Origin: a virus
Lineage: Duplodnaviria > Caudoviricetes
DNA: 64,000 bases
Reading direction: 5' to 3' (one strand)
IMG/VR virus record: IMGVR_UViG_3300011517_000006
Coordinates: 24,476 to 88,475 of that record
The notes beneath the pieces are model-generated. The model was not told the origin of the DNA. It did no database searches and worked only from the letters and a program-made list of their open reading frames with translations. Shown piece by piece: positions 1 through 26,728 of this stretch (within the stretch, counting starts at the first letter, position 1; each line of letters opens with the position of its first letter). Made by a program: the position numbers and the translations under genes.

Positions 1-1080
1 CGTGGCCATCACGGCCTCCTTTTCGGTATGGGCCGAAGCGCGCGAGCCCGACGCGCCGGCTTGGCTTCCTGAAACAGGCTCGGAAGAAACGTGGTCGACC
101 AGGGCGGCGAAGGCCTGCTCCTCGTCCATGATCTCGTCGGCGAGGCCCAGCGCGACGCCCGATCGGGCCTCATCCTGGTGCTCGGCCATGAAGACGTCGG
201 CTCTCAGCTCCAAAAGCTGTTCGCGGGTCAGGCTCGATCGCCCCGCCTCGACATCGGCCAGAAACAGCTCGCCCACCTGGTTGACATCGGCCTGCCAGGC
301 CGCCCGTGCGCTCTCGCTCAGAGCCTTCCACCAGGCGCCGTCCGTCTTCACCCCGCCTTCGGGAAACTCGATGGTGGTGATCTCGACGCCGTCCTGCTCC
401 AGCGAGCCCGCGTGGCTTTCATGGACCATGACGGCGCCGATCGAACCGACGTAACCGACGCTCGGCGCGATGATCCTGTCGGTCTGCGCCGCAATCCAGT
501 AGCCGGCCGAACAGGCCATGTCGGCATAGGTCCAGATCGGCTTTCCGCCGGCGGCCTCCCGGGCTTCACGCATGAAGCGGGCCAGCGTGGGCAGGCCGCC
601 GGCGACGACGCCGCCGGGCGTATCAAGGCGCAGGAAAACGCCGCGAACGCGGGCGTCGGCGAGCGCCTCGCGCATGGCCATCAGCAAGGTATCGTACCCG
701 TGCCAGACGACGCCGCAGAACTCGTCGCCGCGTTCAACCAGAGGGCTGTCGCATTCGATGAGCGCGACGCCGTCTTTCAGCGACCAGCAGAATCCCGTGT
801 CCTCGACCTCGCCCAGCCAGCGCGGTTGATAGGCGAGCCGCTCCTCAATCGGGACGAAGGGTGCGCCTTCGCCGTCGTCCCAAGCGAACGCCGTGCGCGC
901 GCTGTCGCCGGGCGCGTGGCCCAGGCCCACGCGGCGCAGGAAAGCGTCCAGCCGCGATGGACGGCTGAAGGCGCGCGGATCGACCGAACGGATACGCACC
1001 GCCAGATCTCGCGCCGCAGCCGGGGTAAGCAGAAGGGGGCGGCCGGCATAGCGGGCCGCCATGGAGGCGTAGTCAGGCAT
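1..1080 (-). CDS. S49 family head maturation protease (lambda gpC-like), runs off window
   Basis: Translated by hand from ATG at 1080: MPDYASMAARYAGRPLLL...FLRLDTPGG...DMACSAGYWIAAQTDRIIAPSVGYVGSIG; RBS AGGAAAA; directly follows portal. Confidence 0.85.
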   Translation of the reverse strand, partial: MPDYASMAARYAGRPLLLTPAAARDLAVRIRSVDPRAFSRPSRLDAFLRRVGLGHAPGDSARTAFAWDDGEGAPFVPIEERLAYQPRWLGEVEDTGFCWSLKDGVALIECDSPLVERGDEFCGVVWHGYDTLLMAMREALADARVRGVFLRLDTPGGVVAGGLPTLARFMREAREAAGGKPIWTYADMACSAGYWIAAQTDRIIAPSVGYVGSIGAVMVHESHAGSLEQDGVEITTIEFPEGGVKTDGAWWKALSESARAAWQADVNQVGELFLADVEAGRSSLTREQLLELRADVFMAEHQDEARSGVALGLADEIMDEEQAFAALVDHVSSEPVSGSQAGASGSRASAHTEKEAVMAT

Positions 1081-1090
1081 GGTGTTTTCC

Positions 1091-2737
1091 TCAGGCGGCG
1101 GTGCGCTGATCCAGGAAGGCCTGGTGCGCGGGATCTCGGCTGGTTGCGGCGGCGCGCTCCAGCGCCCCGCCCGGCATGGTCAGGCCCAACTCCTGGTACT
1201 TGGCCTGCTCTCGCGCCGTTTGCTCCAGCACCTCTTCCCAATCCTTGCCCTGATCGTCGCACTCGTCTTCCAGAGTGCTGACGTTGGCCTCGATGCGGGC
1301 GGAGGCCGCGTCGATTTCCTTGGTCGGATCGATGAAGCCCCGGCCGGGGCCGATGCAGTGGATCTGACAATAGGCGTCGACCGCGTCGTAGAAGTCCGGC
1401 GCGCCCTCGGGGATCTGGACGTAGCCCCTGTCAAAAGCCTCTTCGGCCCAGGCGACCACGAACGGCCTGACCAGCTGGTCTTCCATCAACCCCATCAAGG
1501 CGACGGTTTCGGCCCAGGCGTGGACGAGGGCTGCGCGAGCAGACGAATAGTTCGTCTGCGAATAGTCCATCGACAGCTCTTCGTAGGTCACGCCCACCGA
1601 TGCGGCGATCAGGCGCAGGATCGAACGCACGAAGGCGTCGAAGCTGGCGACATCCTTCGACGCCGTCTGCAGTTGCAGTTCATCGCCGTACGGCAGGACC
1701 GGAATCTGGGCGCCGTTGGCCAGGTTGACCGGGTGTTCCTTGTAATGGTCCTGGCGCCAGGTCTCGAACTCCCTGACGTCTTTCGCCTCGAAACTCTCGC
1801 TGACGGCGCCCGGCCCGCCGTTCGACTTCATGAAGGCGACGATGAGGGCATTGACCGTCGCGCTCTGCAGCGTGGCGTCCGTGAACCGGGACAGCGCGCG
1901 GAAGCTCTTCAGCGCGGCCGCGAAGCGGCTGACCCCGCGCGTCTGGCCGGCCCGTTCAGGCTCGAAGCAATGAAACACCTGCGGCCGGCCCCACTCGGTC
2001 CAGCGCTCGAACCTCTGCCAGCGGAACTGGCCAGGCCCGCCGAAGTCGGACGGATGCCGCTCGCGGATATGATAGGCGTCGGCCGCGCCCCAGGCGTCGA
2101 ACTCGACGCCGCCGCGCAGTTCGTCCCGATCCGGTCGGCCGTTCGGATTGCTCAGACGGTCAGGATCGACCAGACGAAGCCGCGTCTTGTACCGGGTCGC
2201 CTCGTCTTCCGCCCATTCGCCCAGCCCGAGCGCCTCGCCGTCGACCACGATGTGCGACGCCGCCAGGCGTAGTTGCTGGCCCCAGGTCAGCTTGCGCTCG
2301 GCGTCGGACGTAAAGGCGTGGCCATAGCCGTAAAGCTGGAACTCTGTGCTCAGATCGGCCCCGAGCTGCCGCGCCGCTTCCCTGTCGATGCCGAGAGCGC
2401 GGGCGTTCGGCCTGAACTTGACCCGCCAGCCCTTGCCGACGGCCGCATTGACGCGGCGAGACCGCGCCGACGCGGCGACTGGATCGTTGCGCACCCGCTC
2501 TCGCACGCGCGCGGTGACGCGATCGCGGTTGGGCAGCCATTGCTTGTCGGCAGAGCCGAGTTGGGCCGGCCATTCGGCAAAGTAGGTGCCATGGCCGCTC
2601 GCCCCCTCATAGGAAGGGGACCCGCCCATGGCCGCCGTATCCGTCATCGCCACGGTGCGCGCGCGGGCGACCTCCAGGCGAGAGATCGACCGGCCCGAGG
2701 CGGACACCAAACCTGAGGGAGCGAACGGCGTGCGCAT
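1091..2737 (-). CDS. Phage portal protein, lambda family
   Basis: 548 aa; GQTRGVSRFA, LSMDYSQTNYSSARAAL, GPGRGFIDPTKE motifs. Confidence 0.92.
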   Translation of the reverse strand: MRTPFAPSGLVSASGRSISRLEVARARTVAMTDTAAMGGSPSYEGASGHGTYFAEWPAQLGSADKQWLPNRDRVTARVRERVRNDPVAASARSRRVNAAVGKGWRVKFRPNARALGIDREAARQLGADLSTEFQLYGYGHAFTSDAERKLTWGQQLRLAASHIVVDGEALGLGEWAEDEATRYKTRLRLVDPDRLSNPNGRPDRDELRGGVEFDAWGAADAYHIRERHPSDFGGPGQFRWQRFERWTEWGRPQVFHCFEPERAGQTRGVSRFAAALKSFRALSRFTDATLQSATVNALIVAFMKSNGGPGAVSESFEAKDVREFETWRQDHYKEHPVNLANGAQIPVLPYGDELQLQTASKDVASFDAFVRSILRLIAASVGVTYEELSMDYSQTNYSSARAALVHAWAETVALMGLMEDQLVRPFVVAWAEEAFDRGYVQIPEGAPDFYDAVDAYCQIHCIGPGRGFIDPTKEIDAASARIEANVSTLEDECDDQGKDWEEVLEQTAREQAKYQELGLTMPGGALERAAATSRDPAHQAFLDQRTAA

Positions 2738-3690: not shown

Positions 3691-5801
3691 TAGAAGCTCC
3701 ATTTCTTCTTGGCCGCTGCGACCTCGGCCGAGCTGGCGGCGGGCGCAGACAGCGTTTCCGACTGACCGGCTGGCGGACGCTCCCACAGCGCCTCCAGGCC
3801 GGCCTTCTCGGCCTGTCTGCGACGCGCCAGCTCAAGCCAGTCCGGCTCGGCGCCCGAAACCCCGATGCCCAGAGAAGCGGCCAGCGCGCGGTTGTAGACC
3901 CACAGGTCCAGCTCCTCGTTGCGACGGCGGACGCGAACCCAGGCCTCATCCTTCACGACCCCCGTCTTGCTGTCCTGGACCGAGACCAGAGCCTCGCCGG
4001 TCAGTTCCTCGAAGAAGTCCCGCTCGACCCACCCCGGCCAATGGGGGCGACGCGGCGCCCGAGCGCCCTTCTCCCCTTCCAGGCTCAGCGGAATCGCCTC
4101 GTTCATCAGCGTCCGCTTCAGATCCCAGGTCCCGACGCGCCAGGTCCGGCACGAAACCACTCGCCCTTCCGGCCCTTCCAACTTCTGTTTCGCGCCTCGG
4201 CGAAGCGGCATCCGTCCCCAGCCGTCAGCGCCGTCCAAGGCCTTCGATTTCCCGTGCGCCGAGCAGTAGGCATAGACGTGGAAGGTCCCGTAGCCGGAAT
4301 CGACGCCCTGCACCTCAGTGGCGACATAGCCGCCGTCCTCATGCGGCCACCTCTTGCGCTCCAGCTGCGCCAGCTCGGCCCATATCTGCGGCTCCGACGG
4401 CCCGCCCTCGATCCGCCCCTTATCGACGGGGACGTGCTCAGCATCGGGGCCCCAGGCGTAGGCCGTCCACTGGGCCCAGTCCCCGTTCAGGTCGACGGCG
4501 ATGGTGACGATCTCGTAGCCCGACGGCACCACGCCCTTGGTGAACCGGCCGTCCCGACGTTCCAACAGCTTGTCGACATCGGCCTGCTGGACCGTGACTT
4601 CGTAAGCCTCGCCGAAGATCTGCTGATGCAGGGCGATCTTCGCCTCTTCATCCGTCGCATCCCGGATCTGTTCGGCGATATAGGCCCAGTCCACGGCGTC
4701 GGACACGACCTGCCAGGCGTGGTAGCTGGGCTGTCGGCCCTCTGTCGGCCGTTCCCGCCAGGCCTCGTACTCGCTGACCGCGATGAAGGCGCCGGGCGCC
4801 GGATTATGAGGGTCCGCCGACGGGAAGGTCGGTATCCAGCCGCCGCGCACGCCGTGCGCAGGTTCGCGATACGGGTGACACGCCTCGACCATGGCACGCT
4901 TGTGCCGATGCTCTATCACGCCGCCGCATGACGGGCAGTTGAAGTGGGGCGTTTCGCCCTTCTCCACGCCCATCATCAGCTCGCGATCCAGTCGGATCAG
5001 CACCCCGCCGGGCAGCGACGAGCAATGGGGACAGGGCAGGTACAGCCGGCGCTGGTCGCCGATGCGATAATCGGCCGTCACCGGGCAGCCGGTCAGTTCG
5101 CCTTCATTCTCCTCCGAACGACGAACAAGCCCGGGCGTCGAGTTGTGGAAGGTCTTAGCGCCGGCCAGCTCCCACTGAAGCTGGCGGACCTTGATCTGCT
5201 TGTGCGGGTCGCCCCGATCCCCGACCGACACGCTCCAGTTCGGCGTCTCTTCCTTCACCACCAGGCAGAATGTGACCATCTGCAGCGGCTTGGCGCTGGT
5301 CGTGCCGAAGAACTGTCCGTAACCGCCCGGGAAGCGTTTGTAGGTGTTGGTCGAGCCCTGCTCATCCCGCGAGGTCACCGCACGGATCTTGCGGCGCAGC
5401 TCGGGGGTGGCGTCGACAAGCGGTTGCCACTTCGTCCGGTTGTACTTGAGCGCCTCGTCGCCGCTAGGCAGGGCGACGCCCCACGGGCGAGCCACCACAG
5501 CCGAGTAGTAGAGCGTCGCTAGGACGCCGATCGTCGTCTTCGCGATCTGGGCGGAACCGACGAAGGTGACCGTCCTAGCCGGATCATCGGGGTGAAGCCG
5601 GTCCAGCGGCTCGATCAGATACTCGAACCCATCCCACGATAATGGGCCTTCCCGCGTCGTGCCCGTCTCACCGGGGATGACGACGCGACCTTCGGCCCAG
5701 GCGCTGATCATCTGATCGGGGGCAGGCGTCACGGCCGTCGCCATGGCCATGACCAGCGACGCCGCCTGCCGCGCCAGCTCGGCGCTGCTGAACAGGCTCA
5801 T
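3690..5801 (-). CDS. Terminase large subunit, GpA family
   Basis: 703 aa; GSAQIAKT Walker A, STP motif, YLPCPHC zinc motif, AVDL nuclease motif, RNEELDLWVY. Confidence 0.92.
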   Translation of the reverse strand: MSLFSSAELARQAASLVMAMATAVTPAPDQMISAWAEGRVVIPGETGTTREGPLSWDGFEYLIEPLDRLHPDDPARTVTFVGSAQIAKTTIGVLATLYYSAVVARPWGVALPSGDEALKYNRTKWQPLVDATPELRRKIRAVTSRDEQGSTNTYKRFPGGYGQFFGTTSAKPLQMVTFCLVVKEETPNWSVSVGDRGDPHKQIKVRQLQWELAGAKTFHNSTPGLVRRSEENEGELTGCPVTADYRIGDQRRLYLPCPHCSSLPGGVLIRLDRELMMGVEKGETPHFNCPSCGGVIEHRHKRAMVEACHPYREPAHGVRGGWIPTFPSADPHNPAPGAFIAVSEYEAWRERPTEGRQPSYHAWQVVSDAVDWAYIAEQIRDATDEEAKIALHQQIFGEAYEVTVQQADVDKLLERRDGRFTKGVVPSGYEIVTIAVDLNGDWAQWTAYAWGPDAEHVPVDKGRIEGGPSEPQIWAELAQLERKRWPHEDGGYVATEVQGVDSGYGTFHVYAYCSAHGKSKALDGADGWGRMPLRRGAKQKLEGPEGRVVSCRTWRVGTWDLKRTLMNEAIPLSLEGEKGARAPRRPHWPGWVERDFFEELTGEALVSVQDSKTGVVKDEAWVRVRRRNEELDLWVYNRALAASLGIGVSGAEPDWLELARRRQAEKAGLEALWERPPAGQSETLSAPAASSAEVAAAKKKWSF

Positions 5802-7210: not shown

Positions 7211-7457
7211 GCGTCCCACGGCGTACCGGCTGAACGTCCCACTTATCTTTTTGAGAACACTCGATAAAAATAGAGACGGGACGCGCGGGACGGATGGGAC
7301 GCACCTGTGGCGTCGTGCGCTCCCGCCTGTGCGCCCCCGCAGGAGGCCGGTACCGCGTCCCACGCGTCCCGGTGTCCCACACCCGCCTCAAAGGCCGATC
7401 ATTCATGGCTTTCACCGTGGGACGCATTGCGGGACGCACGGTCGCCGGACCCGTCCC
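7211..7457. repeat. Iteron cluster (GGGAC core, 11 copies in both orientations) with AT-rich spacer; candidate replication origin
   Basis: Copies at 7211, 7234, 7278, 7287, 7296, 7355, 7364, 7372, 7419, 7431, 7451; AT-rich tract 7241-7272. Confidence 0.7.
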
Positions 7458-9258
7458 AAACAGGCGGCTCGAACGCGGAAACCTCTGCAGGATCGGCCCC
7501 CAATCCGACCGGCCTCTCCAGCCAGGGGGTCAGGGGGACAGCCATGGCCCGGCTCTGGTGCATGCCGAAGCGCACCGGAGTAGGCAGCGCTCGCGGCGCA
7601 TAGGCGTCGCCGAGGTCTGCCAGGTGCTCCAGCACCCCGCGCCAGTTGGCGTAGTGGGTTCCCGCCAGCGCCCGCGCGAGAGCGGGGTGGTTCGTAGAGA
7701 TCACCAGCCATGGCCCGGGCCTGTCGTGACTGCCGTGACCGTTCTCGACCTTCAGGCCGAAGGTCTTCAACACCTTCTCATGGACGCCCGGGCTCTCCAG
7801 TTGCTCCTGGATCATCTCGCCGATGGTCAGGTGGCGATCCTTGGCGTGCTGGCCCGAGTTGATGGCCCATATCCGCGACAGACAGGCCTGCCCCGGATTC
7901 TGCGCGGCCGAGGTCTCCTCCCGGTTTCGGATCAGCGCCGACCACCTGGCCACCTCCTCCCGTGCCGTCTCGATCGTCAGCGCCTCATCGTGCAGCAGCA
8001 GCCTTCGCCCGGCGGCGAGCGCGGCGACCAGATCGGCTGCCCGGGGCGTCTGCCCGCTTTCCCCCAGCGCGGCCTTCAACAGACCTACGTCCGACCGGTA
8101 TCGCTTGGCCTCGCGCACGGCGCGCGCCAGCAAGCGGGGGGACACCTCCCTTGCCCAGTCTATGGCTTCCTTCAGCGTTTCGTCGGCGCCGCCCTTGGCC
8201 TTGCCCAGCAGCCTCAACCGCACTTCGACCACCCGCGTGGCCATGGCGTCGCCCAGCTGCACCGGCAGGATGCTGGCCAGGTAGGCGGACCCCACGGCGG
8301 TCTGACCCGCAGTCCGTCCGCCCGTGTCGCCCTGACGCCGGGTCGATCCCTCGCCGGTCGACATGCGTCGCAGCACTTCCAACGCCTTCTCGACCGGCCC
8401 CTGCCCGTCCACGCTGGGCTCCGCCTCGTCCAGGTAGAGCGCCCGCGCCTCGCCGGACAAGCCGTTGCGCAGACCCGCCTCCGAGAAGCTGTCCAATAGA
8501 TCCCCGGCGTTCGCGCTGCCTGCCGCCTGCAGCAGGCGCGACAACGTCGTCTTGCCGGCCCCTGCTCCGCCGCTCACGCTGGCGTGCGGCCTGAACGGCG
8601 GAATGGCGCCGAGCAGCGCGGTTCCCTGCCATCCGAACAGCGCGTCCGCCTCGCTGAGGCCATCGGGATCCCGAGGATCCAGCGGGGCGAAGTTCCACAT
8701 GTTCATCAGCTCGCGCAGCTGCTCGCCCTCCGCGATGGTCGCGGGCTTGCCTGGCCTGGGGGCCGGGGGGCGCAGCAGCCACAAGGGACCGCGGTTGCGG
8801 GCGCCGTTCCTCAACGCCTCCGCCACCGATTCCCAATCGTCATCGCCGAAGGGCCAACGGCCGACCGCGTCGCCGGCATGGACGACCGGACCGTCTATGG
8901 TCGACCACACCCCGTACCCACGCTGCGGCCGATCGCTGTCCCACCGGCCGGCCTTGCGGCATCGATCGACGAACCACTGGGCCGCCATGTCGCGCTGCAG
9001 CTTTCCATCGTTGTCGCGCCATTGGGCCAGGAACACCCGCCCCTCCAGGCTGACGAACAGGTCGGTCTTCAGCATGCCGGCGATCTTGGACGCCGGCTCG
9101 CGGCGCAACTCGCCCTCAGGCAGGGCGAAATGCACGTAACCGCCCTCGAACCCCAGCGGGATCACCGGACAGTCCTCGACCTTCGGCTCGATCCAGACGG
9201 CGCCGGACGCCGCCTCGCTGTCGGGATCGGCGTCATCCATCACATAGGAATCGTTCAT
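7399..9258 (-). CDS. Replicative P-loop ATPase/helicase (SF3-like)
   Basis: Walker A GGAGAGKTT, Walker B LYLDEAE; coupled to primase gene. Confidence 0.75.
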   Translation of the reverse strand: MNDSYVMDDADPDSEAASGAVWIEPKVEDCPVIPLGFEGGYVHFALPEGELRREPASKIAGMLKTDLFVSLEGRVFLAQWRDNDGKLQRDMAAQWFVDRCRKAGRWDSDRPQRGYGVWSTIDGPVVHAGDAVGRWPFGDDDWESVAEALRNGARNRGPLWLLRPPAPRPGKPATIAEGEQLRELMNMWNFAPLDPRDPDGLSEADALFGWQGTALLGAIPPFRPHASVSGGAGAGKTTLSRLLQAAGSANAGDLLDSFSEAGLRNGLSGEARALYLDEAEPSVDGQGPVEKALEVLRRMSTGEGSTRRQGDTGGRTAGQTAVGSAYLASILPVQLGDAMATRVVEVRLRLLGKAKGGADETLKEAIDWAREVSPRLLARAVREAKRYRSDVGLLKAALGESGQTPRAADLVAALAAGRRLLLHDEALTIETAREEVARWSALIRNREETSAAQNPGQACLSRIWAINSGQHAKDRHLTIGEMIQEQLESPGVHEKVLKTFGLKVENGHGSHDRPGPWLVISTNHPALARALAGTHYANWRGVLEHLADLGDAYAPRALPTPVRFGMHQSRAMAVPLTPWLERPVGLGADPAEVSAFEPPVWDGSGDRASRNASHGESHE

Positions 9259-10562
9259 GCGGACACGCCCCCGGCTACGCTCGCGGCGGCCTCGGCCGCC
9301 CTGATCACTTCGTTGAAATCCATGCCGATCGGCGGGCGCGAGACACGCACCTGCGTCGAACTTCCGGTGCTCAGGCGGCGGCTCCAGCTGGCCCGGGCCA
9401 AAGCGCCGCTCACGCGCGCCCGCTCGGCGCTGTCACGCACCGCCTCGATCATTCGCTTTTGCTGGCGCCCGCTACGTCCTTTGACCGTCACCGGGCTCAT
9501 GTCGCCGTCGACGGCGATGTCGATCAGCCCCCACGGGTTCTCCGGATCCTCCGGCCAGGTGAAGCCGGGCCGCAAAGGATCCGCCCTGACCCGCCAGATG
9601 TCCCGTGCGCCATCCTTGTCGATGGCCTCGAAGCCGCTCAACCGATCCAGCGATCCCGCCGCAACCGCCCGAACCGGCCGGCTCAACGGCCCAGCCAGCA
9701 TCATGGCCCGCGACGCCGCGTTCTCGACGCCCTCCGCCACCACGAGGGGGCCTGGGGCGTCCGGTCGCGTCAACCACAGCCCGCCCGGCAGCACATAGCC
9801 CTCGATGTCGCCATGCCGGTCCGGCCGGGGCGGCCCCGCCAGTCCGTCGCGACGCGCCAGCACGAAATGGCCCTGCGGCCCCAGCATCCGCTTCGCCGGC
9901 GACCGGTGCGTCTTCCCGCGCCCGTTGGGCGCCAGATAGGTGCAGTGCACGCCGCCGGTCGGACCCAGCTCCGTCATGACCAGAATGACCATCGCCGGCA
10001 GGAACACGCCCCGCTCCGGATGGCCGCTATGCCAGGTTCGCGGATTGAACCCGACCAGAGCCAGCATCCGCGCCGCGACGGGCCCCCGGATGCTCCGCGC
10101 CTCTTCCAGATAGACCTGCGCCAACGACCCGGCCGCGGGCTCACGCTCGCGCCAGATCTTGCGCGCCATTTCCAACCGCCATGCGGCGTCGGCCAGCGCC
10201 TCGGCTTCGGCCTGTTTCGACGCCTGCGCACGCCGTGCGCGCGAAGCCTCGCTTTCGGGCTTCAACTCGCCGCCCATCAAACGGCGGGCCGCGTCGGCCA
10301 TCGTCTCATCGCCGCCTGAGAACAGCCGATGCTCCAGATCGATCACATCGCCGCCGCGCGGGTCGCAGGAATAGCACTGCCAGCGCCGCCCATCGGCGGA
10401 CACGCGGAACGGGGCTAGTTTGCTCTTGGCCCCGCATTCATTCAGGGGGCAGACGCCTCGATAGCCCTTGCCCGTCTTGCGCAGCTTGCACTTGGGCGCC
10501 CGGATCGCGATGTCCTCGCACCGGACCGCCGCACGCGCCCTGTCGAACAGCTCGTCGCTCAT
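9255..10562 (-). CDS. DNA primase (CHC2-type Zn finger + toprim)
   Basis: GVCPLNEC...WQCYSC zinc finger, KRMLG, VVAEGVENA toprim; start MSDELF at 10562. Confidence 0.8.
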   Translation of the reverse strand: MSDELFDRARAAVRCEDIAIRAPKCKLRKTGKGYRGVCPLNECGAKSKLAPFRVSADGRRWQCYSCDPRGGDVIDLEHRLFSGGDETMADAARRLMGGELKPESEASRARRAQASKQAEAEALADAAWRLEMARKIWREREPAAGSLAQVYLEEARSIRGPVAARMLALVGFNPRTWHSGHPERGVFLPAMVILVMTELGPTGGVHCTYLAPNGRGKTHRSPAKRMLGPQGHFVLARRDGLAGPPRPDRHGDIEGYVLPGGLWLTRPDAPGPLVVAEGVENAASRAMMLAGPLSRPVRAVAAGSLDRLSGFEAIDKDGARDIWRVRADPLRPGFTWPEDPENPWGLIDIAVDGDMSPVTVKGRSGRQQKRMIEAVRDSAERARVSGALARASWSRRLSTGSSTQVRVSRPPIGMDFNEVIRAAEAAASVAGGVSA

Positions 10563-11248
10563 GCCGCGATCTCCGCAGCCCTGACAGCGGCCTCGATCCG
10601 GAAGCAGGCGGTGTCGAAATGCTTCGGATCGATCTCGACCCCCGTGAACCTCAGGCCCCGCTTGATCGCCGCCACGCCGGTCGAACCGCTGCCCATGAAG
10701 GGGTCGCACACGTTCGCGGCGTTGATGGTGGCCAACACCTTGTCCATGACCGGATCGGGCTTGACCGTCGGATGATCGACACCGGTGAAACGGCCGCTCT
10801 CGCTCAGGATCCACCGCGCCTTGTCGGTCAGGCTTCCGACCGGATGCGCGCCCGCCAGCCAGGCGTGAACCCAGAACTCCGTGTCCGGCCGATAGTGCTT
10901 GTTCGCCACCGGCAGCGGGTTGGTCTTGTGCCAAGCGCAGACGACGGTCCGATGGTACCGCGCAGCCAGACGCGGCAGCAGCTGGGGCAGCTGATCGTTA
11001 TGACAGAACACCGCCACCGACCGGAACGTGGCCGGCGAACAGATCCGATCGTCGAACCCCTGATCCAGCCCGGCCGCCGCGATCCGATCCATGTTCGGCC
11101 GGGCCTTGCGGAAGCGTCCTGCCCCGCGCGTGTTGAACGCATACGGCGGATCGAACACCCCCGCGTCCTGGGGGCCCAGGGTCCGCACCACCTCGTACCC
11201 GTCGCCCAGGTAAAGCGTCGCCGGCCCGATGACCTCGATCCGGCTCAT
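10559..11248 (-). CDS. DNA N6-adenine/N4-cytosine methyltransferase (beta class)
   Basis: DPPY motif IV before DPFMGSGSTG motif I; HPTVKP; GVEID. Confidence 0.88.
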   Translation of the reverse strand: MSRIEVIGPATLYLGDGYEVVRTLGPQDAGVFDPPYAFNTRGAGRFRKARPNMDRIAAAGLDQGFDDRICSPATFRSVAVFCHNDQLPQLLPRLAARYHRTVVCAWHKTNPLPVANKHYRPDTEFWVHAWLAGAHPVGSLTDKARWILSESGRFTGVDHPTVKPDPVMDKVLATINAANVCDPFMGSGSTGVAAIKRGLRFTGVEIDPKHFDTACFRIEAAVRAAEIAA

Positions 11249-11646
11249 GCCGCCGCCCCGCGCGAGGCTTCGATCTGTCGCCGCGCCTCGGCCTTGTTGG
11301 CCGCTGTCATGAAATAGCCCACGCCCCAGCGGGTGCCGATCTCGATCCCGAACGGCTTCAGCTTCCGCCGGATGTGGCAGACGAAGACGTCCACGATCTT
11401 CATCTCGGGCTCATCCTCGCCCCGGTCGCGGTAAAGCGCCGCCATCGCGGAGTCCTTCGTCAGCAGCTCGCGCTCCAGCAGGACCCCGAACAGTCGGGCC
11501 TGCTGGACGGTCAGCCCCCACTCCAGCGGCGGCAGGACGCACAGGCCCATCGCCTCCTCCAGCTCAACGATGCGGTCTTCCAGGCGCGTGATCGTGGCCT
11601 GCAGCGCGGCCTCGCGCGCAACGGGGTCAACCTGCTCGACGGCCAC
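11245..11646 (-). CDS. Receiver-less OmpR/PhoB winged-helix protein, CtrA-like DNA-binding domain
   Basis: LTKDSAMAALY...DEPEMKIVDVFVCHIRRKL...TRWGVGY compared with recalled CtrA DEPELKIIDVFICKLRKKL...TVWGRGY. Confidence 0.8.
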   Translation of the reverse strand: MAVEQVDPVAREAALQATITRLEDRIVELEEAMGLCVLPPLEWGLTVQQARLFGVLLERELLTKDSAMAALYRDRGEDEPEMKIVDVFVCHIRRKLKPFGIEIGTRWGVGYFMTAANKAEARRQIEASRGAAA

Positions 11647-14304: not shown

Positions 14305-14372
14305 TTTTGTGCGTGATTCGCACAAAAAGAACAGCTAGGAAGTTCGCCTTATGAACGTGCGCGAGGCGAACT
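14305..14372. promoter_or_regulatory. Prophage 1 operator cluster (GTKCG-N5-CGMAC) in the cro/cI switch
   Basis: Perfect palindrome TTTTGTGCG-TGATT-CGCACAAAA at 14305-14327; related sites at 14342-14356 and 14357-14371. Confidence 0.75.
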
Positions 14373-15384: not shown

Positions 15385-15475
15385 CGTGGCCCCTCCGCGC
15401 CCCTCCTTTGTGCGCGATTCAGCACCGCCATGATAGGCGACCAATGAATTCCAAAGCGTCACATAACGCCAATAA

Positions 15476-15523
15476 GTGCGCTTGACGCACATACAAAAGC
15501 AGACATATGTTCGCGTTACGCAC
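15476..15523 (+). promoter_or_regulatory. Early promoter with two operators
   Basis: TTGACG -35 at 15482 inside GTGCG-CTTGA-CGCAC (15476-15490); second site GTTCG-CGTTA-CGCAC (15509-15523). Confidence 0.7.
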
Positions 15524-15540: not shown

Positions 15541-16071
15541 ATGGCCCAGTCTGATCTACCTGCCTTCGAAGCCGTACTCCGCTCGCCCCAGGGCGAGATA
15601 CGGGTTTGGCTTGAGCCTGCGACGAACCCGGACGCAGAGGCGCACGCCGTGCGCACTCGCCTGCGCATCGACTACGGCGACGAAGCCGACCGTCTTGTTC
15701 ACGACCAGGCCGCCCTGCGCCTGGTCGCCCAGCTGACCCGCGCCGTGCGCGGCCTGTCCGGCGCAGGCACGGCCGAGACCGCCGCCGTCGCCGCCGCCCC
15801 CAGCGTCGGCCCATGGCTAGTCGAGCGCACCGAGGCCGAGCCGACGACGCGCACCCTCGTCGCCCATCTGTTTCAGGACTACCTCGCCTGGTGCGACCGA
15901 CGCGCCTTCACGCCCCTGTCCCGTTTCGACTTCGGCCGCGAGCTGGAGCAGCGCGGCTTCCCCTCCGCAGGCAAGATTCGTCAGGGCGCGACCCAGGGTC
16001 ATGCGCGCGGCGGCCTGCGCCTGCGGCCGGTCGCTGTCGGGTCGGCTCTCAAGACGGGAGACGCCCGATGA
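15541..16071 (+). CDS. Hypothetical protein with a primase-C-terminal-type winged helix
   Basis: LFQDYLAWC...FGRELEQRGF...GGLRLR; RBS GGAGG. Confidence 0.6.
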   Translation: MAQSDLPAFEAVLRSPQGEIRVWLEPATNPDAEAHAVRTRLRIDYGDEADRLVHDQAALRLVAQLTRAVRGLSGAGTAETAAVAAAPSVGPWLVERTEAEPTTRTLVAHLFQDYLAWCDRRAFTPLSRFDFGRELEQRGFPSAGKIRQGATQGHARGGLRLRPVAVGSALKTGDAR

Positions 16072-16493: not shown

Positions 16494-16900
16494 TGGCGTC
16501 CGCCCTTTCCTTCGCCGACGCCGCCGCCATGCGCGCAGCCCTGGCCGACAATGACACAGGCCCGTTGGTCGTGATCGAGCTGCGGCCGCCCTGCGCCTCC
16601 GAACGCATCGAGATCTCAGGCGGCTTCGACGGCCCCGACCCGGTCCAGGTGGTTAAATCCCTCTGCCGCGCCTTGGAATGCGGCCCGGGCGCCGTCGCCG
16701 CCGTCATCGACCCGACAGCGCGCGGCCTGCGCGGCGAAGAGGCGCGCTGTTACGTCCTGGACAAGGCGGACCGTCGCGTCGCCCGTATCTGCGGCCTCAG
16801 CTTCGCCTATGTGAACGTCGCGGCCTCGGCCCTGGCCAACAGCGGCTGGCGACCGGGCATGAACCGCGAGAGCGGCCTCCGTCCGGATGCCTTCCAATGA
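16493..16900 (+). CDS. Hypothetical phage protein
   Basis: TGATG-coupled. Confidence 0.55.
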   Translation: MASALSFADAAAMRAALADNDTGPLVVIELRPPCASERIEISGGFDGPDPVQVVKSLCRALECGPGAVAAVIDPTARGLRGEEARCYVLDKADRRVARICGLSFAYVNVAASALANSGWRPGMNRESGLRPDAFQ

Positions 16901-17046
16901 AGCGCAACGGCCGCCTTCTCACCGACACGGGCCGCGAAGCCCTCGCCGCCGTCCTGGTCATCCTCCTCGCCGTCGCCTTCGCCGGCGCTGCGCTCCAGGC
17001 CCGGGGACCCGCCCAACCCCTGCCCGCTCAACACCGGATCCGCTGA
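16897..17046 (+). CDS. Small single-TM protein
   Basis: [19 protein letters not shown]; ATGA-coupled. Confidence 0.5.
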
Positions 17047-17047
17047 C

Positions 17048-19024
17048 ATGGCTTCCCCTGCCCTGCGCGAAATGCGCGAGGCCGACTTCCCGGCCGTCGT
17101 GCACACCTACACCGACGTCCTGCGCCTTCTGCGTGATCAGCCGCAAGGCGACGCGGGCCATCTGGCCCGCCTGACCGGCCGTGACGGCTCGAACGTCCGC
17201 CGCGACATGCACAAGCTGGTCGACGCCGGCGTCGTCCAACACGACGGGGCCTGCTGGATCCTGACCGACAAGGGCCGTCAATGGGTCGCCGGCCAGGACG
17301 TGGCCGAGGGTCTGATTTCGCCCGACGGTTCCGCGGTTCCGGTCACCCGCTGTCCCATCGATCAGATCCGGCCCAACCCGGCCAACCGCCCGATCGACCC
17401 CGAGACCATTCCCGACCTGGCCCTGTCGATCATCGGCGCGGACGACGTGCTCCAGCCCCTGATCCTGACCCCGCCCGACGCGAACGGCGTGCGCATGATC
17501 CTGGCCGGCGAGCGTCGCTGGCGCGCTGTCCGCCACATCATGGAAACGGGCAGCACCCTGCCCGCCGCCCTGACGCCCGGCGTCCCCTTCGTCGAGCGCG
17601 AGGCGACCGAGGCCGAGGCTCTGCAGATCACCATCATCGAGAACAGCCAGCGCCAGGACCTCTCGCCATGGGAAGACGCCCAGCTGCTGCTGCAGCTGCA
17701 GGCCGCCACCGGCTGGAACGCCTCCGAGCTGGCCCGCAACATCGGCCGCGCGGCCGAGGGCGAACGCTCCGGGCTGCGCGACGTCCAGACCAAGCTGAAG
17801 GTCGCCCGCGAGGCCTCCCCCGCCGCCATCGCCGCCTATCTCGACAACGGCAGCTGGGACCAGCTGCGCAGCAGCGTCAGCCAGCCCAAGGCCACGACGC
17901 TCTCCGACCAGGTCGCCGAGTACGGCGCGGCCAGCCTCAAGCCCGGCGAACCCACCCCGCTTGAGCAGGCGATCGAGGAGGCGCAGCAGCTTTACACCGT
18001 CGCCGATTTCGGCGTCCCGGCCGATTGGAAGGCCGACGACTTGGGCGCGGCGGCAGCCTGGCTGGAGACCGGCACCCTCGAGATGCTGACCTGCACTGAC
18101 GGCAGGGTCAGCGCCACCATCTATGTGGCTCAGCTCAAAGGCGGCGCTTGCTGGCTGAACGGCACGTCGCACACCGCCGCGACGTCCGGCCACTCCTCCA
18201 GCCTGAATGGCGTCTGGAGATCCGCCGCCCCGGCCTTCGTGAGCCGGAAACGCGCGATTGAAGCGGCCGCCGCCTACCTCAAGCTCACCTACGGGGCGCA
18301 CCTGACCAAGCGCATCCGGGATTGGCTCAGCGACCCAGAAGGCGCGCCGACCGGCCCCCATGTTGTAAACGGGATCGACTACGGCAACGCCACCCGCGCA
18401 AACGAAGCGCGCTACGCCGCCGGCATCCTCCAGCGCCCGGCCGCCAACTACGGCTCAGCATCCCGCAGGGATCCGCCCGCGCCCGCCGCCGAACCCGGCG
18501 ACGCCGACACGCCCGCGCCGGCGTCCTCCGCCCGCGAAGAACTGGCCGAACAACGCCTCGAGCGCCTCGGCGCGGCCCTGCAGGTCCTGACCGAGCGGCT
18601 CGAGCCCCTGCTCGCCGTCCTGCGCGGCGACCGCACCGACGACGGCCTGGTCACGCTCGAGACCGACGACGCCGAGTACTACGAGCGCGAGATCTCCGAG
18701 GCCTGTCAGTGGGCCGAGGACGCCCTGGCCGACACCAGCACCGTCTTCGACGGCTGGGGCGAGGAGACGCCGCGCCCGGACCTGGGCGCGCCTGCCGTGC
18801 CGATCCGCCAGTCGATCACGGCGGACCACATCGTCTGTCTCGAGGACGGCCGCAAGTTCAAGTCGCTGAAGCGCCACCTGCGCACCCGCTACAACCTCTC
18901 GCCGGAAGAGTACCGCCGGCGCTGGGGTCTCCCGGCCGACTACCCCATGGTCGCGCCCAACTACGCCAAGGCGCGCGAGGATCTGGTCCGCCGGATGGCC
19001 CTCGGCCTGGCGGGGACGCGCTGA
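17048..19024 (+). CDS. wHTH-ParB-MucR(Ros) fusion protein
   Basis: ParB motifs [36 protein letters not shown]; C-terminal [30 protein letters not shown]...[14 protein letters not shown] MucR domain. Confidence 0.85.
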
Positions 19025-19458
19025 TGTCCGCCCGCCCCTGGATCGAAGGCGCCGCCCTTCTGGCCGCCCATCACCGCGCCGCACCGGCGCCCCGAACTCT
19101 TCACCGCAGGAGCTATCCCGTGTCCCCCGACGTCCGCTTCGCCCTGCTCAGGGCTGACCCCCAGAACCAGCAGTCGGCCAAACCTCTGGCCTTTCCCGAC
19201 ATCGGCGCCCTGGCGCGCCACATTCAGCGCGAACGCGCCGGACGCTCGATCGAGCTGGTCGACATCGAGGACCTGCGCTTCGACGGCGACGCCAACATGC
19301 GCGAGGGCGTCTCGGTCTACGTCCTGGACCTCGGCGGCGATCGCGACGGCCTGATCGGCCACTGCTGGCTTGACGGCCAGGGGCAGGACGCCCTGCGCCA
19401 CGCCCTCGCCCGCAACCAGCTGGCGAGCATCAGCGCCCCTTCGGCGAGGGCCGCCTGA
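19024..19458 (+). CDS. Hypothetical phage protein
   Basis: TGATG-coupled, 144 aa. Confidence 0.55.
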   Translation: MSARPWIEGAALLAAHHRAAPAPRTLHRRSYPVSPDVRFALLRADPQNQQSAKPLAFPDIGALARHIQRERAGRSIELVDIEDLRFDGDANMREGVSVYVLDLGGDRDGLIGHCWLDGQGQDALRHALARNQLASISAPSARAA

Positions 19459-19904
19459 TGGACGGCGCGACCTTCCCCTCCGTCCAGCCCGCGCCCGACC
19501 TCGCCGCCGCCGAGCCGCCCGCCCGCCTGAACCGGCGCCAGGCCGCCAAGCGCAGAACGCGTCAGCGCGTCCTCGCCGCCGCGACCGACCTGTTCAACGA
19601 CGTCGGCTACGCCAAGGGCACCATCCGGGCCATCGCCAAGCGCGCCGGCATGTCCACCGGCGCCGTCTTCGCCAACTTCATCGACAAGGACGACCTCTAC
19701 GTCGCCGCCTTCGGCCACCCGCCGCTGACGCCCGAACAGGGCCTCCGCCTGGCCGCCGCTCTGCGCGAGGCCGAAGCTTTCATCCGCGGCTTCGACGACG
19801 ACCCTCTGCAGGAAGGCGTTCCTGAGCTGCTGCAGGCCATCAAGGCGGTCGTGCCCCCTCCGCCGCCCGCACCGGCTCAGGCGACGGGAGGCGCCGATGC
19901 ATGA
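19458..19904 (+). CDS. TetR-family HTH protein with short, non-canonical C-terminus
   Basis: RQRVLAAATDLFNDVGYAKGTIRAIAKRAGMSTGAVFANFIDKDDL. Confidence 0.8.
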   Translation: MDGATFPSVQPAPDLAAAEPPARLNRRQAAKRRTRQRVLAAATDLFNDVGYAKGTIRAIAKRAGMSTGAVFANFIDKDDLYVAAFGHPPLTPEQGLRLAAALREAEAFIRGFDDDPLQEGVPELLQAIKAVVPPPPPAPAQATGGADA

Positions 19905-20262
19905 CCGCCTGCCTGGGCTACGCGCTCTCGATCATTCACACGGCCCTGATGCGCCTGCTCGGCCGCCGGCGCCTGCTCTGACGGCATCGCCCCCGCCCCC
20001 GGCCTATGTGGACCGGGGCTACCATCCCGGCGGCCGCTGGGAGCGGATCCTGCGCGCCATCCACGATCAGCCGCTGACCGAGACCGAGATCCTGCGCGCC
20101 GTCCACGACGGCCGCTACCCGCGCCGGATCGAGCGCCGCAAGATTCACGCCGCCCTGATCGCCATGACCCGTCAGGGCCTGACGGCGCGCCTGCCGGGTC
20201 GCCCGCCCGCCTTCACCGCCACCGCGCACGGCGTGCGCGTCCTGCATGGAGAGGCCGCGTGA
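19897..20262 (+). CDS. Hypothetical protein, possible winged helix
   Basis: Coupled ORF, 121 aa. Confidence 0.5.
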   Translation: MHDRLPGLRALDHSHGPDAPARPPAPALTASPPPPAYVDRGYHPGGRWERILRAIHDQPLTETEILRAVHDGRYPRRIERRKIHAALIAMTRQGLTARLPGRPPAFTATAHGVRVLHGEAA

Positions 20263-23926: not shown

Positions 23927-25555
23927 GTGATCCGCGTCGCCCTTTACGCTCGCTACAGCTCGGACCGACAGAACGAGCGCTCGATCTCCGATCAGTTGAG
24001 CCTCCTGATCCAGCACGCCGGCGCCAAGGGCTGGGCCGTCGTCGGCACCTACACCGACGCCGCCATTTCCGGCTCGGCCATGGCGAATCGCCCCGGGCTT
24101 CTCGCAGCGCTCGCTGCGGCCGAACGGGGCGAGTTCGACCTGCTGCTGGCGGAAGACGAAGACCGTCTCGCCCGCAACCTGGAACACTTGGCGCACGTGG
24201 CCAACCGCCTGGCCGACATCGGCGCCGGCATCGCCACCCTGTCGACGGACCGGGTCCAGGACATGCACGTCGCCTTCAAGGGGCTCATCGCTCAGGACTT
24301 CATTCGCAACCTCAGCATGAAGACCAAGCGCGGTATGGCCTCCAATGCGGAGAAGGGGCTCGCGACCGGCTCGCGCCTTTACGGCTATCGCTCCCAGCCC
24401 GGCGGCGCGGTCGAGATTGTGCCCGACCAGGCCGAGGTGGTCCGGCGCATCTTCTCCATGTACGTCAACGATCGCATGTCCTCGCGCGAGATCGCTGAAC
24501 GCCTCAACCGCGACAGGATACCCTCTCCGGCCGGCCGGGAATGGAACGCCTCATCCATTCAGGGCTCGCGCCAGCGCGCCAACGGCATCCTGCACAGCGA
24601 GATCTACGCCGGCGTAAAGGTCTACAACCGCGTCGAGATGCGAAAGGACCGCCAGACGGGGCGTAAGATCACGATCTGCAAGCCGCCCAGCGAGCACAAG
24701 CGCATCGACGTCCCCCACCTGGCCATCATCGACCAGGACCTGTGGAACGCCGCCCGGCAGCGCCTGGACAGCCGGCAGACGGCCGACCCTTCGCAGCGCG
24801 CAAGCCTGCGGCGGCGCCCGGGCCTGCTGTCCGGGCTGACCAAGTGCGGCTGCTGCGGGGCGTCCTACACCTCACTCAGCCAGGGGCGCCTGGTCTGCGC
24901 CGCCTATCGTGAGAAGGGCGTGTCCGCCTGCAATAACAACCGCCACGTCAAGCGCGCCGAGATCGAGCAGCGCGTGCTGGACGGCCTGCGCACGCGGCTG
25001 CTGGCCCCCGAGGCCATCGCCGCCTACGTCCGCGCCTATCACGCCGCCTGGGCCGAGCAGGCCGCCCAGGTCGAAGACCGCCGCCGCCCTCTGACGCGGC
25101 GGCTGGCCGAGGTCGAGCGCGCGATCGAGCGCGGGGCCGAAGCCCTGCTCTCCGGTGCGACGGCGGCCGCCGTCATCGGCAAGAAGCTCGAAGCCCTCGA
25201 AATCGAACAGGCCCAGCTCAAGGCGACCCTTGAACAGCTCGACGCTGAAGGCGCGCCGCCCGTGCAGCTGCACCCGCGCGCGGCCGAGAACTACGCCCGC
25301 AAGATCGAGCAGCTCCAGGCGCGCCTGGCCGAGGCGGCCGGCAGCACCGACGACGCGGACAGAGACCTGATCGGCAGCGTCAGGGGCCTGATCCAGAAGG
25401 TGGACATCGAGCCGATCAACAAATCGAGAGGATCGCCGGTGCGGGTCACCTTGCACGGTGACCTCGCCCGGTTCGTTCTCCCGCAACACCCACCAGCTAG
25501 TGGGTGTGCGTTGGTGGTTGGAGGCGGGATCGAACCGCCGACCTGTGGGTTATGA
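23927..25555 (+). CDS. Large serine recombinase (integrase of prophage 1)
   Basis: YARYSS catalytic serine, EDEDRLAR, recombinase domain, LSGLTKCGCCG...C...C zinc ribbon, coiled coil. Confidence 0.93.
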   Translation: MIRVALYARYSSDRQNERSISDQLSLLIQHAGAKGWAVVGTYTDAAISGSAMANRPGLLAALAAAERGEFDLLLAEDEDRLARNLEHLAHVANRLADIGAGIATLSTDRVQDMHVAFKGLIAQDFIRNLSMKTKRGMASNAEKGLATGSRLYGYRSQPGGAVEIVPDQAEVVRRIFSMYVNDRMSSREIAERLNRDRIPSPAGREWNASSIQGSRQRANGILHSEIYAGVKVYNRVEMRKDRQTGRKITICKPPSEHKRIDVPHLAIIDQDLWNAARQRLDSRQTADPSQRASLRRRPGLLSGLTKCGCCGASYTSLSQGRLVCAAYREKGVSACNNNRHVKRAEIEQRVLDGLRTRLLAPEAIAAYVRAYHAAWAEQAAQVEDRRRPLTRRLAEVERAIERGAEALLSGATAAAVIGKKLEALEIEQAQLKATLEQLDAEGAPPVQLHPRAAENYARKIEQLQARLAEAAGSTDDADRDLIGSVRGLIQKVDIEPINKSRGSPVRVTLHGDLARFVLPQHPPASGCALVVGGGIEPPTCGL

Positions 25556-25556
25556 A
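25512..25556 (-). tRNA. 3' half of tRNA-Met(CAT) only (att site remnant)
   Basis: Minus strand TTCATAA-CCCAC-AGGTC-GGCGG-TTCGATC-CCGCC-TCCAACC-A-CCA; no 5' anticodon stem, D-arm or 5' acceptor strand. Confidence 0.85.
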
Positions 25557-26728
25557 GCCGCCGCGCCCGACCCCTTAGACGATTGTTCTTCCTCGCCCTT
25601 TTCCGGACCCTTGGGCGATGCTCCGGGACTATTCCGGGAGAGCGCCGCAAGCCCGGCTTTCACGTCGTCCTCGATCGCGTGGGCGTAAACCATCGTCGAC
25701 TTGATGTCGGCATGGCCCAGGAGGCGCTGCGCCAGACGAAGGTTGCCGGTCTCCCGCAGGATCTGCATGCCGCTGTGGTGGCGCAGGTCGTGGATGCCCC
25801 GCAGGCCCTTGGCGTCCTTCAGCCCGGATCGCTTCATCGCCCGGCGCATGGCGATAGCGGCTCCAGAGGGCTTGAGCGCCTTCAGGATGACCTTCCCGGC
25901 CGGCCCGCGTAGGCGCCGCTCGCGATACCAGACCGTTTCCAGCTTCGCGGCACGCGCCCGGCCAAGACGAGCCGATAGCATCGCCGCATCCTCGGGCAGC
26001 AGGGGGATGACGTGATCGTCGCCGCCCTTCCGATCTCGAAGGCGGACGCGGGCGTTGTTGATGTCGGCCACGTCGAGGTCGTCGAGCGAGAAGAACAGCT
26101 CCGACAGTCGACAGCCGTAGCGGGCGGCGAAGCGGATCAGGTCGTGCCAGTGGGGCAGAACCTCGGCCTCGACCCGCTCCAGCTCATCCCCGACGAGCTC
26201 CTTGGGCCGGGGCTTAGGCTCCTTGAGGCGCAGGGCCTCCCAGTCGATCTCCGGAAGCCTGGCGCCCCATGCCTTCCGTGCGCGGTTCAGGATCGGCCGG
26301 AGGGTGTCGATCATGTCCCGGTTCACCGTCGAGTTCGACGGCAGGTATTCCTTCGCCCCCTTGGCCTTGGACTTCACGATGCCCTGGCCGCGGCGTCGCT
26401 CGATGGCGGTGGCGATGTGGTTGGTGGTGATGTCGCAGATGCGTGTCCCTGCCCCCACGACGGCCATCATGCGCTCGATCCGGGCTTCCAGACGGGCGCC
26501 GCCCTTCAGCGTCGTGCCGCGCTCGGCCCACCAACGGCCGGCGGCCTCGTCCAGGGTCATCTGCGAGGCGTCATCCAGTTCGCCCGTCGCCGCCTTGGTG
26601 CGGATGCGGCGTTCGACCTCCTCGGCCTTGCGCTTCGTCTCCACGCCGGTCGAGCCGTGGTAGCGCCTGCCCTTGTATTGGAAGTCGTAGGCCCAGTACC
26701 GGCTGTTCTTCGGCAGGTAGACGGACAT
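25550..26728 (-). CDS. Tyrosine integrase (prophage 2)
   Basis: YGCRLSE, HDLRH, LLGHADIKSTMVYAH catalytic motifs; N-terminal arm-binding domain. Confidence 0.93.
   Translation of the reverse strand: MSVYLPKNSRYWAYDFQYKGRRYHGSTGVETKRKAEEVERRIRTKAATGELDDASQMTLDEAAGRWWAERGTTLKGGARLEARIERMMAVVGAGTRICDITTNHIATAIERRRGQGIVKSKAKGAKEYLPSNSTVNRDMIDTLRPILNRARKAWGARLPEIDWEALRLKEPKPRPKELVGDELERVEAEVLPHWHDLIRFAARYGCRLSELFFSLDDLDVADINNARVRLRDRKGGDDHVIPLLPEDAAMLSARLGRARAAKLETVWYRERRLRGPAGKVILKALKPSGAAIAMRRAMKRSGLKDAKGLRGIHDLRHHSGMQILRETGNLRLAQRLLGHADIKSTMVYAHAIEDDVKAGLAALSRNSPGASPKGPEKGEEEQSSKGSGAAAS

Follow-up and report, generated by a model that had tools for sequence, protein, structure and literature searches.

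A ParB-type protein with a fused MucR/Ros finger and an array of spaced palindromes in a temperate phage: a candidate orphan DNA clamp

Results

One gene joins a winged helix, a ParB core and a MucR/Ros finger

The DNA analyzed here, referred to as the window, is a stretch of 64,000 nucleotides (positions 24,476 to 88,475) from the 88-kb provirus record IMGVR_UViG_3300011517_000006 (Caudoviricetes), which contains two tandem prophages. The subject of this report is an open reading frame (ORF) in the first of them, at 17048-19024 on the plus strand, which is open over 658 aa and has a GC content at third codon positions of 0.90, as in genuine genes of this 67% GC window. An earlier, sequence-only reading described this single ORF as a fusion of a winged helix, a ParB domain and a MucR/Ros domain, the latter at about 18790-19010; Pfam matches and motifs bear out all three domains, and the MucR match spans 18770-19006. 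The gene and its parts are as follows.

17048..19024 (+): wHTH-ParB-MucR fusion gene (P0001), 658 aa, with its ATG 1 nt past the stop of the upstream ORF
17093..17305 (+): N-terminal winged helix-turn-helix (wHTH), residues 16-86, from Pfam, the AlphaFold2 (AF2) model and Foldseek matches to IclR/MarR
17345..17650 (+): ParB N-terminal NTPase-fold domain, residues 100-201, from Pfam, NCBIfam and PDB alignments
17666..17881 (+): ParB-type helix-turn-helix (HTH) DNA-binding domain, residues 207-278, the candidate reader of the palindromes described below, from NCBIfam TIGR00180 and Foldseek
17990..18337 (+): alpha/beta middle domain, residues 315-430, from the AF2 model and segment-wise BLAST
18509..18763 (+): helical hairpin, residues 488-572 (493-563 in the AF2 model), predicted homodimer
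18770..19006 (+): MucR/Ros DNA-binding domain, residues 575-653, of host type, without the MucR N-terminal oligomerization region

The Pfam match to the wHTH (HVO_A0114/HTH_IclR type) comprises residues 23-67, and that to ParB_N (PF02195) comprises residues 100-201, with 36.7 bits against a cut-off of 26.3. The NCBIfam ParB model TIGR00180 scores 52.2 bits, under its cut-off of 58.45, and covers residues 103-234, placing the ParB HTH directly behind the N domain. When N domain and HTH were compared with solved structures using Foldseek, the match was to Caulobacter crescentus ParB (6t1f, E 1.3e-8, TMt 0.64, 198 columns), and Noc and KorB (8qa9) were also found; by sequence, the closest PDB entries were Spo0J, ParB and Noc for residues 90-248, and Ros87 (2jsp, E 1.8e-25) for the tail. 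ParB box II (GERRWRA) and box III (ENSQRQDL) are intact and align with those of C. crescentus, T. thermophilus and M. xanthus ParB, and across 40 relatives G154, E155, R157 and R202 never vary, while at least 90% retain N199. Box I reads N-P-A-N-R-P where Q-P-R is usual; R114 is kept in at least 90%, and the Gln position is occupied by Ala or Asn, depending on the alignment. The Gln of the Q-P-R motif is catalytic in M. xanthus ParB. Ahead of its recognition helix, the ParB HTH has a 7-residue insertion. Judged by motifs and fold, the fusion is a ParB-fold member.

The remaining parts were examined in the AF2 model (mean pLDDT 71 for the whole protein) and separately. When modeled alone, the middle domain gave a confident fold (pLDDT 85.5). 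It behaves as a cassette, with 36-39% identity in protein pairs that reach 80-100% in the N- and C-terminal parts on either side of it (e.g., P0007 and P0008); the stretch exchanged between near-identical proteins corresponds to window 17903-18400, residues 286-450. No solved relative of this domain was clear in a VIA-align comparison with 48,161 chains (best Z 4.9), Foldseek with the whole AF2 model returned only ParB and wHTH folds, and the ESM Atlas yielded no usable match. A conserved motif at residues 436-460 lies between the middle domain and the hairpin in the model. Pfam detected no canonical ParB C-terminal domain in the fusion. The hairpin (488-572) was predicted as a dimer with a score of 0.66, the best control reaching 0.01, with runs agreeing in at least 88% of contacts and partner pLDDT of at least 78. 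In a benchmark, the 0.66 mark was attained by 20 of the 30 proteins that had been solved as pairs and by 1 of the 23 solved as single chains, so that homodimerization of the hairpin is a supported prediction and no more than that. In the stand-alone proteins P0136 and P0137 this hairpin likewise stands ahead of the finger; P0136 is an independent gene.

The fusion is recurrent and is not an assembly artifact

Contigs often break at 18857-18886, where sequences of many host mucR genes accumulate. An isolate contig of 7961 nt carries window 16900-19500 in one piece, and a virome contig of 34193 nt carries window 16900-18883 with 2 differences. The junction is thus bridged by independent contigs, and with the recurrence of the architecture in clusters this leads us to reject an assembly artifact; the ORF almost certainly encodes a real fusion protein. 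The virome contig comes from a run labeled 'viral metagenome', which suggests that this phage, or one nearly identical to it, is released as particles.

A word-indexed search found dozens of proteins of 640-970 aa containing all three Pfam domains, with identity down to ~35%, and those with source names came mostly from Brevundimonas. An exhaustive search gave 138 representatives at E 1e-30 or better, and segment-wise BLAST placed a ParB core with a C-terminal MucR finger in at least 54 clusters from independent contigs. That homologues might always be split into separate genes is therefore rejected: fused forms dominate, though a stand-alone hairpin-plus-MucR gene exists. The finger itself is clearly patchy in its distribution, with at least 17 presence changes on a quick, approximate tree of 188 ParB cores compared with 46 when labels were shuffled, and is one swappable C-terminal option of a larger wHTH-ParB family. 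The C-terminal halves of members without MucR match no Pfam family. Among isolated phages (INPHARED), the fusion was not found, only stand-alone MucR proteins.

Palindromes are dispersed over the whole prophage

Prophage 1 carries a 15-bp palindrome, GCG(C/A)ACG(S)CGTGCGC, at eight window positions between 884 and 20238 when one mismatch is allowed (0.16 expected), and the palindrome scan found GCGCACGCCGTGCGC three times. The sites have no strand.

884..898: 1 mismatch to the CA-class consensus (GCGAAC half-site)
2721..2735: hybrid half-sites, at the 5' end of the portal gene
4845..4859: exact, within the large terminase gene
8113..8127: 1 mismatch
10226..10240: exact, within the primase gene; L002 and L003 also have a site in the stretch matching the primase
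15640..15654: exact, ~130 nt downstream of the putative early promoter
17480..17494: within the fusion gene, codons A-N-G-V-R just ahead of GERRWRA; position kept in most relatives
20224..20238: exact; L002 and L003 have a site at the matching place downstream of the fusion gene

Five more sites lie in the upstream part of the record, giving 13 over the ~42 kb of the whole prophage 1, compared with 0.1 in shuffled sequence, and none of the palindrome classes of prophage 1 was found in prophage 2 (38 kb). In the 3.4-Mb genome of B. diminuta BD39 (G001), 13 of 14 sites lie inside a related 42-kb prophage, and the reversed-pattern control gave 0. The sole palindrome outside that prophage is at C5:241057-241071.

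Whole-record searches together with de novo discovery divided the sites of related phages into four classes.

Class CA, GCGCAC..GTGCGC: 13 sites in this phage, 13 in the BD39 prophage, 5 in G004
Class AA, GCGAAC..GTTCGC: 5 in G003, 7 in G007, 6 in G008
Class AG, GCGAGC..GCTCGC: 8-10 in each of G005, G006, G009 and G011
Fourth class, CGAACC-N-GGTTCG: 5-9 in each of G012-G016, distant MucR-fusion phages, with 0 in controls

The sites are spaced at a mean of ~3.5-8 kb, and in all 11 genomes tested the spacing was more even than random, with coefficients of variation (CV) of 0.18-0.64 compared with ~0.8; prophage 1 of the window shows weaker evenness (CV 0.62, P 0.07). The intragenic site differs between classes in a synonymous position, the Val codon being GTT in AA-class phages, which makes a perfect AA palindrome, and GTG in CA-class phages. 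Five complete or near-complete relatives have arrays and no MucR domain anywhere.

Site classes track the ParB HTH

To find the likely reader of the palindromes, we compared gene content within 10 kb either side in 16 loci with class CA or AA sites. The ParB N domain with its HTH was present in all 16. A primase was likewise present in 16 of 16, but equally in loci of other site classes, and the MucR domain was absent from several of the 16. TetR, the CtrA-like protein and the methylase were each absent from several of these loci and were rejected as readers, as was the CI-like repressor, because it matches nothing in most relatives that have this site. The N-terminal wHTH is a poorer candidate: its recognition helix varies widely among phages with the same CA site.

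Sixteen alignment columns fully separate AA-class from CA-class proteins, and four of these (I232, A236, S241 and R244) fall in a 13-residue stretch of the HTH. The 7-residue HTH insertion is absent in most fourth-class phages; L035 also lacks the insertion, yet has AG-type cores. Contigs of phages with a stand-alone MucR and no ParB-like gene (L037-L040) contained no palindrome array. Site classes thus appear to track the ParB HTH and not the MucR domain, and the palindromes are probably the sites of the fusion protein. As an array that seems to co-vary with the ParB part, they lend indirect support to the idea of a spreading clamp.

The finger is of host type and lacks the oligomerization half of MucR

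The C-terminal match to ROS_MUCR (PF05443) is strong (112.7 bits, cut-off 25.4, residues 575-653) and involves only positions 45-123 of the 123 in the profile. Positions 1-44, the oligomerization half, are unmatched, the N-terminal half of host MucR gave no BLASTP alignment, and a different helical hairpin occupies the position of the oligomerization region. By these comparisons, the fusion is not a full MucR. MucR silencing requires N-terminal oligomerization (PMC9779718, PMC9410896), and the missing half therefore disfavors a simple MucR-like silencer and somewhat favors competition with host MucR.

The sequence-only reading called the finger near-canonical. In the ligand pattern, C-x2-D...H-x4-Y, the second Cys of the Ros pattern C-x2-C...H-x4-H is replaced by Asp and the last His by Tyr, which qualifies that description. 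The BD39 genome encodes one canonical full-length MucR whose finger pattern is identical to that of the phage domain, and over 73 residues the phage domain and this B. diminuta protein share 71% identity. A degenerate zinc finger was rejected because host MucR shares this pattern. The fourth ligand of the fusion finger is not His, and within the Ros/MucR family there are both Cys-Asp-His2 coordination spheres and members that bind DNA without zinc (PMC9779718).

The gene lies in a putative early operon of a prophage that lacks ParA

The sequence around the immunity region contains the following features.

15476..15511 (+): putative early promoter TTGACG-18-TATGTT in the AT-rich patch just upstream of the fusion-gene operon, the -35 falling within the inverted repeat GTGCGCTTGACGCAC
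15476-15490 (no strand): inverted repeat GTGCGCTTGACGCAC, GTGCG-N5-CGCAC type
14309..14323 (no strand): inverted repeat GTGCGTGATTCGCAC, the second of operator type, in the AT-rich stretch that separates the cro-like gene from the CI-like gene
7229..7268 (no strand): third AT-rich patch, GC 0.40 or less, upstream of packaging genes, a candidate MucR-type target

The match at 15482-15511 is the only sigma-70-like one on the plus strand between 13.4 and 26 kb. The phage repressor likely has its operators in the two GTGCG-N5-CGCAC repeats (14309-14323 and 15476-15490), whose half-site is similar, in inverted order, to the arm of the 15-bp palindrome. Over the first 27 kb of the window, GC drops to 0.40 or less in just three 40-bp segments (7229-7268, 14305-14344 and 15471-15510), and a search for direct repeats in 9-26 kb gave only GC-rich noise. 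The fusion gene looks like a member of a repressor-controlled early operon, in a placement comparable to that of the int-side operon of lambda, and because this operon lies behind an operator-overlapped promoter, the protein is probably made early after infection or induction.

The two prophages meet within the window.

Window 1-25555: prophage 1, ending in a large serine integrase at 23927-25555 (+)
Window 25550-64000: prophage 2, beginning with a tyrosine integrase at 25550-26728 (-), with terminase, portal, capsid and tail genes at 40-60 kb

The leftward arm of prophage 1 carries a cro-like gene, a methylase, a receiver-less CtrA-like gene, and primase, terminase and portal genes; the rightward arm carries a CI-like S24 repressor, several small ORFs, the fusion gene, a TetR gene and the serine integrase. 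In six relatives (identity down to ~35%), the fusion gene is likewise flanked by the immunity region and the integrase, shares its strand with the integrase and is opposite the replication genes; the integrases of these phages are of serine or tyrosine type, and their primases are DnaG-like or Prim-Pol. No match to the ParA families PF13614 or PF01656 was found in the 88-kb record, while controls matched in 14 of 14 genomes, and ParA was likewise absent from the context of the six relatives. A partition role was rejected, since there is no ParA and the phage integrates, and the fusion is not a ParABS partition protein.

Discussion

Relation to known systems

A description of this fusion, or of spaced parS-like arrays in temperate phages, was not found in the full-text literature, subscription journals not being covered, nor does a MucR fusion come up in the text of a 2025 survey on fusions of the ParB fold or in the supplements consulted. 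The architecture, which the sequence-only reading did not recognize, is no isolated case and recurs as a module in temperate phages, from Brevundimonas where a host is named. The association of a palindrome array with a fusion phage is new here.

By analogy, the fusion may work like KorB, BisD or VirB. KorB of RK2 (IncP-1) and its O_B sites share with it a ParB fold with an HTH, about a dozen dispersed palindromes with a central S, and, on the KorB side, distant regulation by sliding (PMC11790492, PMC13584720); the fusion phages show the same trait of many dispersed sites, 13 over ~42 kb here and 5-10 per relative. KorB differs in having a ParA partner (IncC) and a separate latch protein, KorA or TrbA, and in belonging to a plasmid, whereas the fusion has no ParA, resides on an integrating element, contains an extra wHTH and middle domain, and carries the MucR finger in cis. 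The fused finger could play the clamp-locking part of KorA/TrbA. BisD of ICEclc in Pseudomonas putida is likewise an orphan ParB-like CTP clamp of an integrated element with an added non-ParB domain; it loads at parS-like sites, spreads ~50 kb and controls promoters of the element (PMC12409273). It has two bisS sites and acts as an activator with BisC, in contrast to the ~13 spaced sites and the silencer-type finger of the fusion. VirB of Shigella flexneri is a CTP-dependent ParB-family protein that counters the xenogeneic silencer H-NS on AT-rich DNA (PMC10770331, PMC10653881), and MucR is the alphaproteobacterial counterpart of H-NS (PMC9410896). VirB has no silencer-derived domain and acts on a plasmid from virS sites beside its target promoters, and for the fusion an anti-silencing activity is only presumed.

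With the Ros/MucR silencers (Ros87, 2jsp), the fusion shares a bona fide DNA-binding domain of host type in its C-terminal 80 residues (PMC9779718, PMC9410896), and differs in that the oligomerization region is replaced by a hairpin predicted to dimerize and a ParB-type module of 490 residues. Stand-alone phage MucR proteins (Erythrobacter phages vB_EliS_R6L and ZS04, Mesorhizobium phage Cp1R7A-A1, and P0136) share the phage-borne finger and differ in having no ParB part, and the contigs L037-L040 have no array. The 133-aa MucR-like protein of ZS04 (L013, PV416405.1, 5986-6387) is labeled 'ParB-like partition protein' in GenBank; possibly the annotation source groups it with ParB-MucR fusions.

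A proposed mechanism and its alternatives

The explanation that best fits the locus as a whole, and to which we give an even chance, combines an orphan clamp, loading at palindromes, MucR fingers and counter-silencing. The fusion would be a ParA-less, nucleotide-gated DNA clamp of ParB/KorB type, made by a temperate Brevundimonas phage, with its gene probably expressed soon after infection or induction. We strongly infer that it loads at the ~13 palindromes, one of which lies in its own gene; from these the clamp would slide until the whole phage genome is covered. The two MucR fingers on the dimeric stalk would, we infer, dock at the AT-rich promoter patches (7.2, 14.3 and 15.5 kb) and, being unable to form the higher oligomers of MucR, would compete there with host MucR. 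The protein would then be a counter-silencer acting only on palindrome-carrying DNA. Competition is proposed here rather than MucR-like silencing because the fingers would be dimeric and without an oligomerization region.

Several results weigh against this proposal. A MucR domain is missing altogether from many relatives that carry such site arrays too, so the core function of the family would need no MucR. The covariation of sites and protein rests on few independent lineages, which is why their pairing is held at no more than probable; of the 16 columns that tell the classes apart, only the four named above fall in the HTH, the other 12 being in the N-terminal region, where conservation is poor, and R244K was rejected as a simple specificity switch, since AG-class phages have either residue. 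Without the catalytic Gln in box I, hydrolysis or even CTP specificity may differ. The ParB fold is able to bind ATP or GTP as well (PMC12704722). The promoter match is no better than chance (1 found, 0.9 in shuffled sequence), the MucR domain is modeled with low confidence by AF2, and binding, nucleotide use and expression of the fusion are predictions made from its sequence.

Among the ways in which such a clamp might act, of which the sequence-only reading had named a silencer, a counter-silencer and a tether, cis-restricted counter-silencing is favored, if tentatively; a self-latching repressor in the style of KorB is a close second, and take-over in trans and tethering follow. As a repressor, which we consider possible but doubtful, the clamp would slide until its own finger latches on AT-rich promoters and turns lytic or late promoters off over long range, for prophage silencing or temporal control. 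The dispersed palindromes resemble the O_B sites of KorB, whose structure (8qa9) Foldseek also matched, the AT-rich patches coincide with regulatory regions, the fusion gene is on the strand of the CI-like gene and the integrase, and KorB needs a clamp-locking partner for distant repression (PMC11790492, PMC13584720), a part that the finger would supply. However, the promoter of the operon overlaps an operator of the type found in the cro/CI gap, suggesting that the gene is off in the lysogen; a finger without an oligomerization domain would be a poor silencer by the rules known for MucR (PMC9779718); and relatives without MucR retain their arrays. The same relatives count against a tether or organizer, in which the clamp coats phage DNA while the fingers attach to the AT-rich, MucR-type host nucleoid or bridge phage DNA, which would, in the manner of an episome tether, hold replicating phage genomes in place, compact them or shield them. 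Sites that evenly cover the whole genome and two separate DNA-binding modules on a dimer would suit such a role, and ParB proteins are known to condense DNA (PMC8299390), but a phage that integrates by a serine integrase and has no ParA faces no inheritance problem, and we regard tethering as quite unlikely.

In Caulobacterales, the MucR regulon includes cell-cycle and envelope genes. A dimeric finger might serve as a dominant-negative or surrogate MucR on the host regulon, with the ParB part and the palindromes only buffering or localizing the protein. The host-type finger, with its 71% identity to B. diminuta MucR and the same ligand pattern, agrees with such a take-over in trans, as do the receiver-less CtrA-like protein and methylase also encoded by prophage 1 and the stand-alone MucR proteins of isolated phages; these stand-alone proteins are, on the other hand, already available for action in trans, and the tie of the finger to a clamp with phage-confined sites would be left unexplained, so that we consider this explanation unlikely. 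Least probable, to the point of being hard to credit, is that another phage or host factor reads the palindromes and that the fusion is unrelated to them, for example as a ParB-fold enzyme or with an anti-defense function. Phage ParB-fold fusions are diverse and often of unknown role (PMC12704722), and the primase family occurs in all site-positive loci. But that family is equally present with other site classes, a conserved site lies inside the ParB-like gene with a synonymous codon that tracks the site class, the HTH insertion is absent from most fourth-class phages (though also from L035, with its AG-type cores), and phages with a stand-alone MucR and no ParB-like gene have no palindrome. 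Of the two leading readings, counter-silencing remains our tentative choice and repression the more doubtful. Extended to the family, the counter-silencing model would have temperate phages of Caulobacterales marking their genomes with evenly spaced clamp sites, and a clamp bearing a stripped host finger evicting MucR from phage DNA only, a proposal that we put forward as a possibility with considerable reserve.

Should cis counter-silencing prove true, the fusion would be the first anti-silencer described for MucR. The ParB-fold clamps that regulate genes (KorB, BisD and VirB) form a young field, and with these evenly spaced arrays, integrating phages join the replicons that have site networks like that of KorB. 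The locus offers a defined protein, a 15-bp site with four natural specificity classes, variants with and without MucR, and a culturable host genus, which make both the delivery of a DNA-binding domain by a clamp and the escape from, or exploitation of, MucR by phages directly testable.

Neighboring and related genes

The receiver-less CtrA-like protein of prophage 1 is an OmpR/CtrA-type Trans_reg_C protein of 133 aa, encoded at 11245-11646 (-), and adjoins an N6/N4 methylase at 10559-11248. Both are kept in the closest relatives and absent from several more distant site-positive phages. Prophage 2 encodes a short ParB_N-domain protein of its own (334 aa, 33325-34329, plus strand), beside a helicase and a Toprim primase. 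In the distant phage L008, a gene with the DNA-binding domain of GapR, a Caulobacter nucleoid protein family, is found at 4169-4465, two genes downstream of the ParB-MucR fusion.

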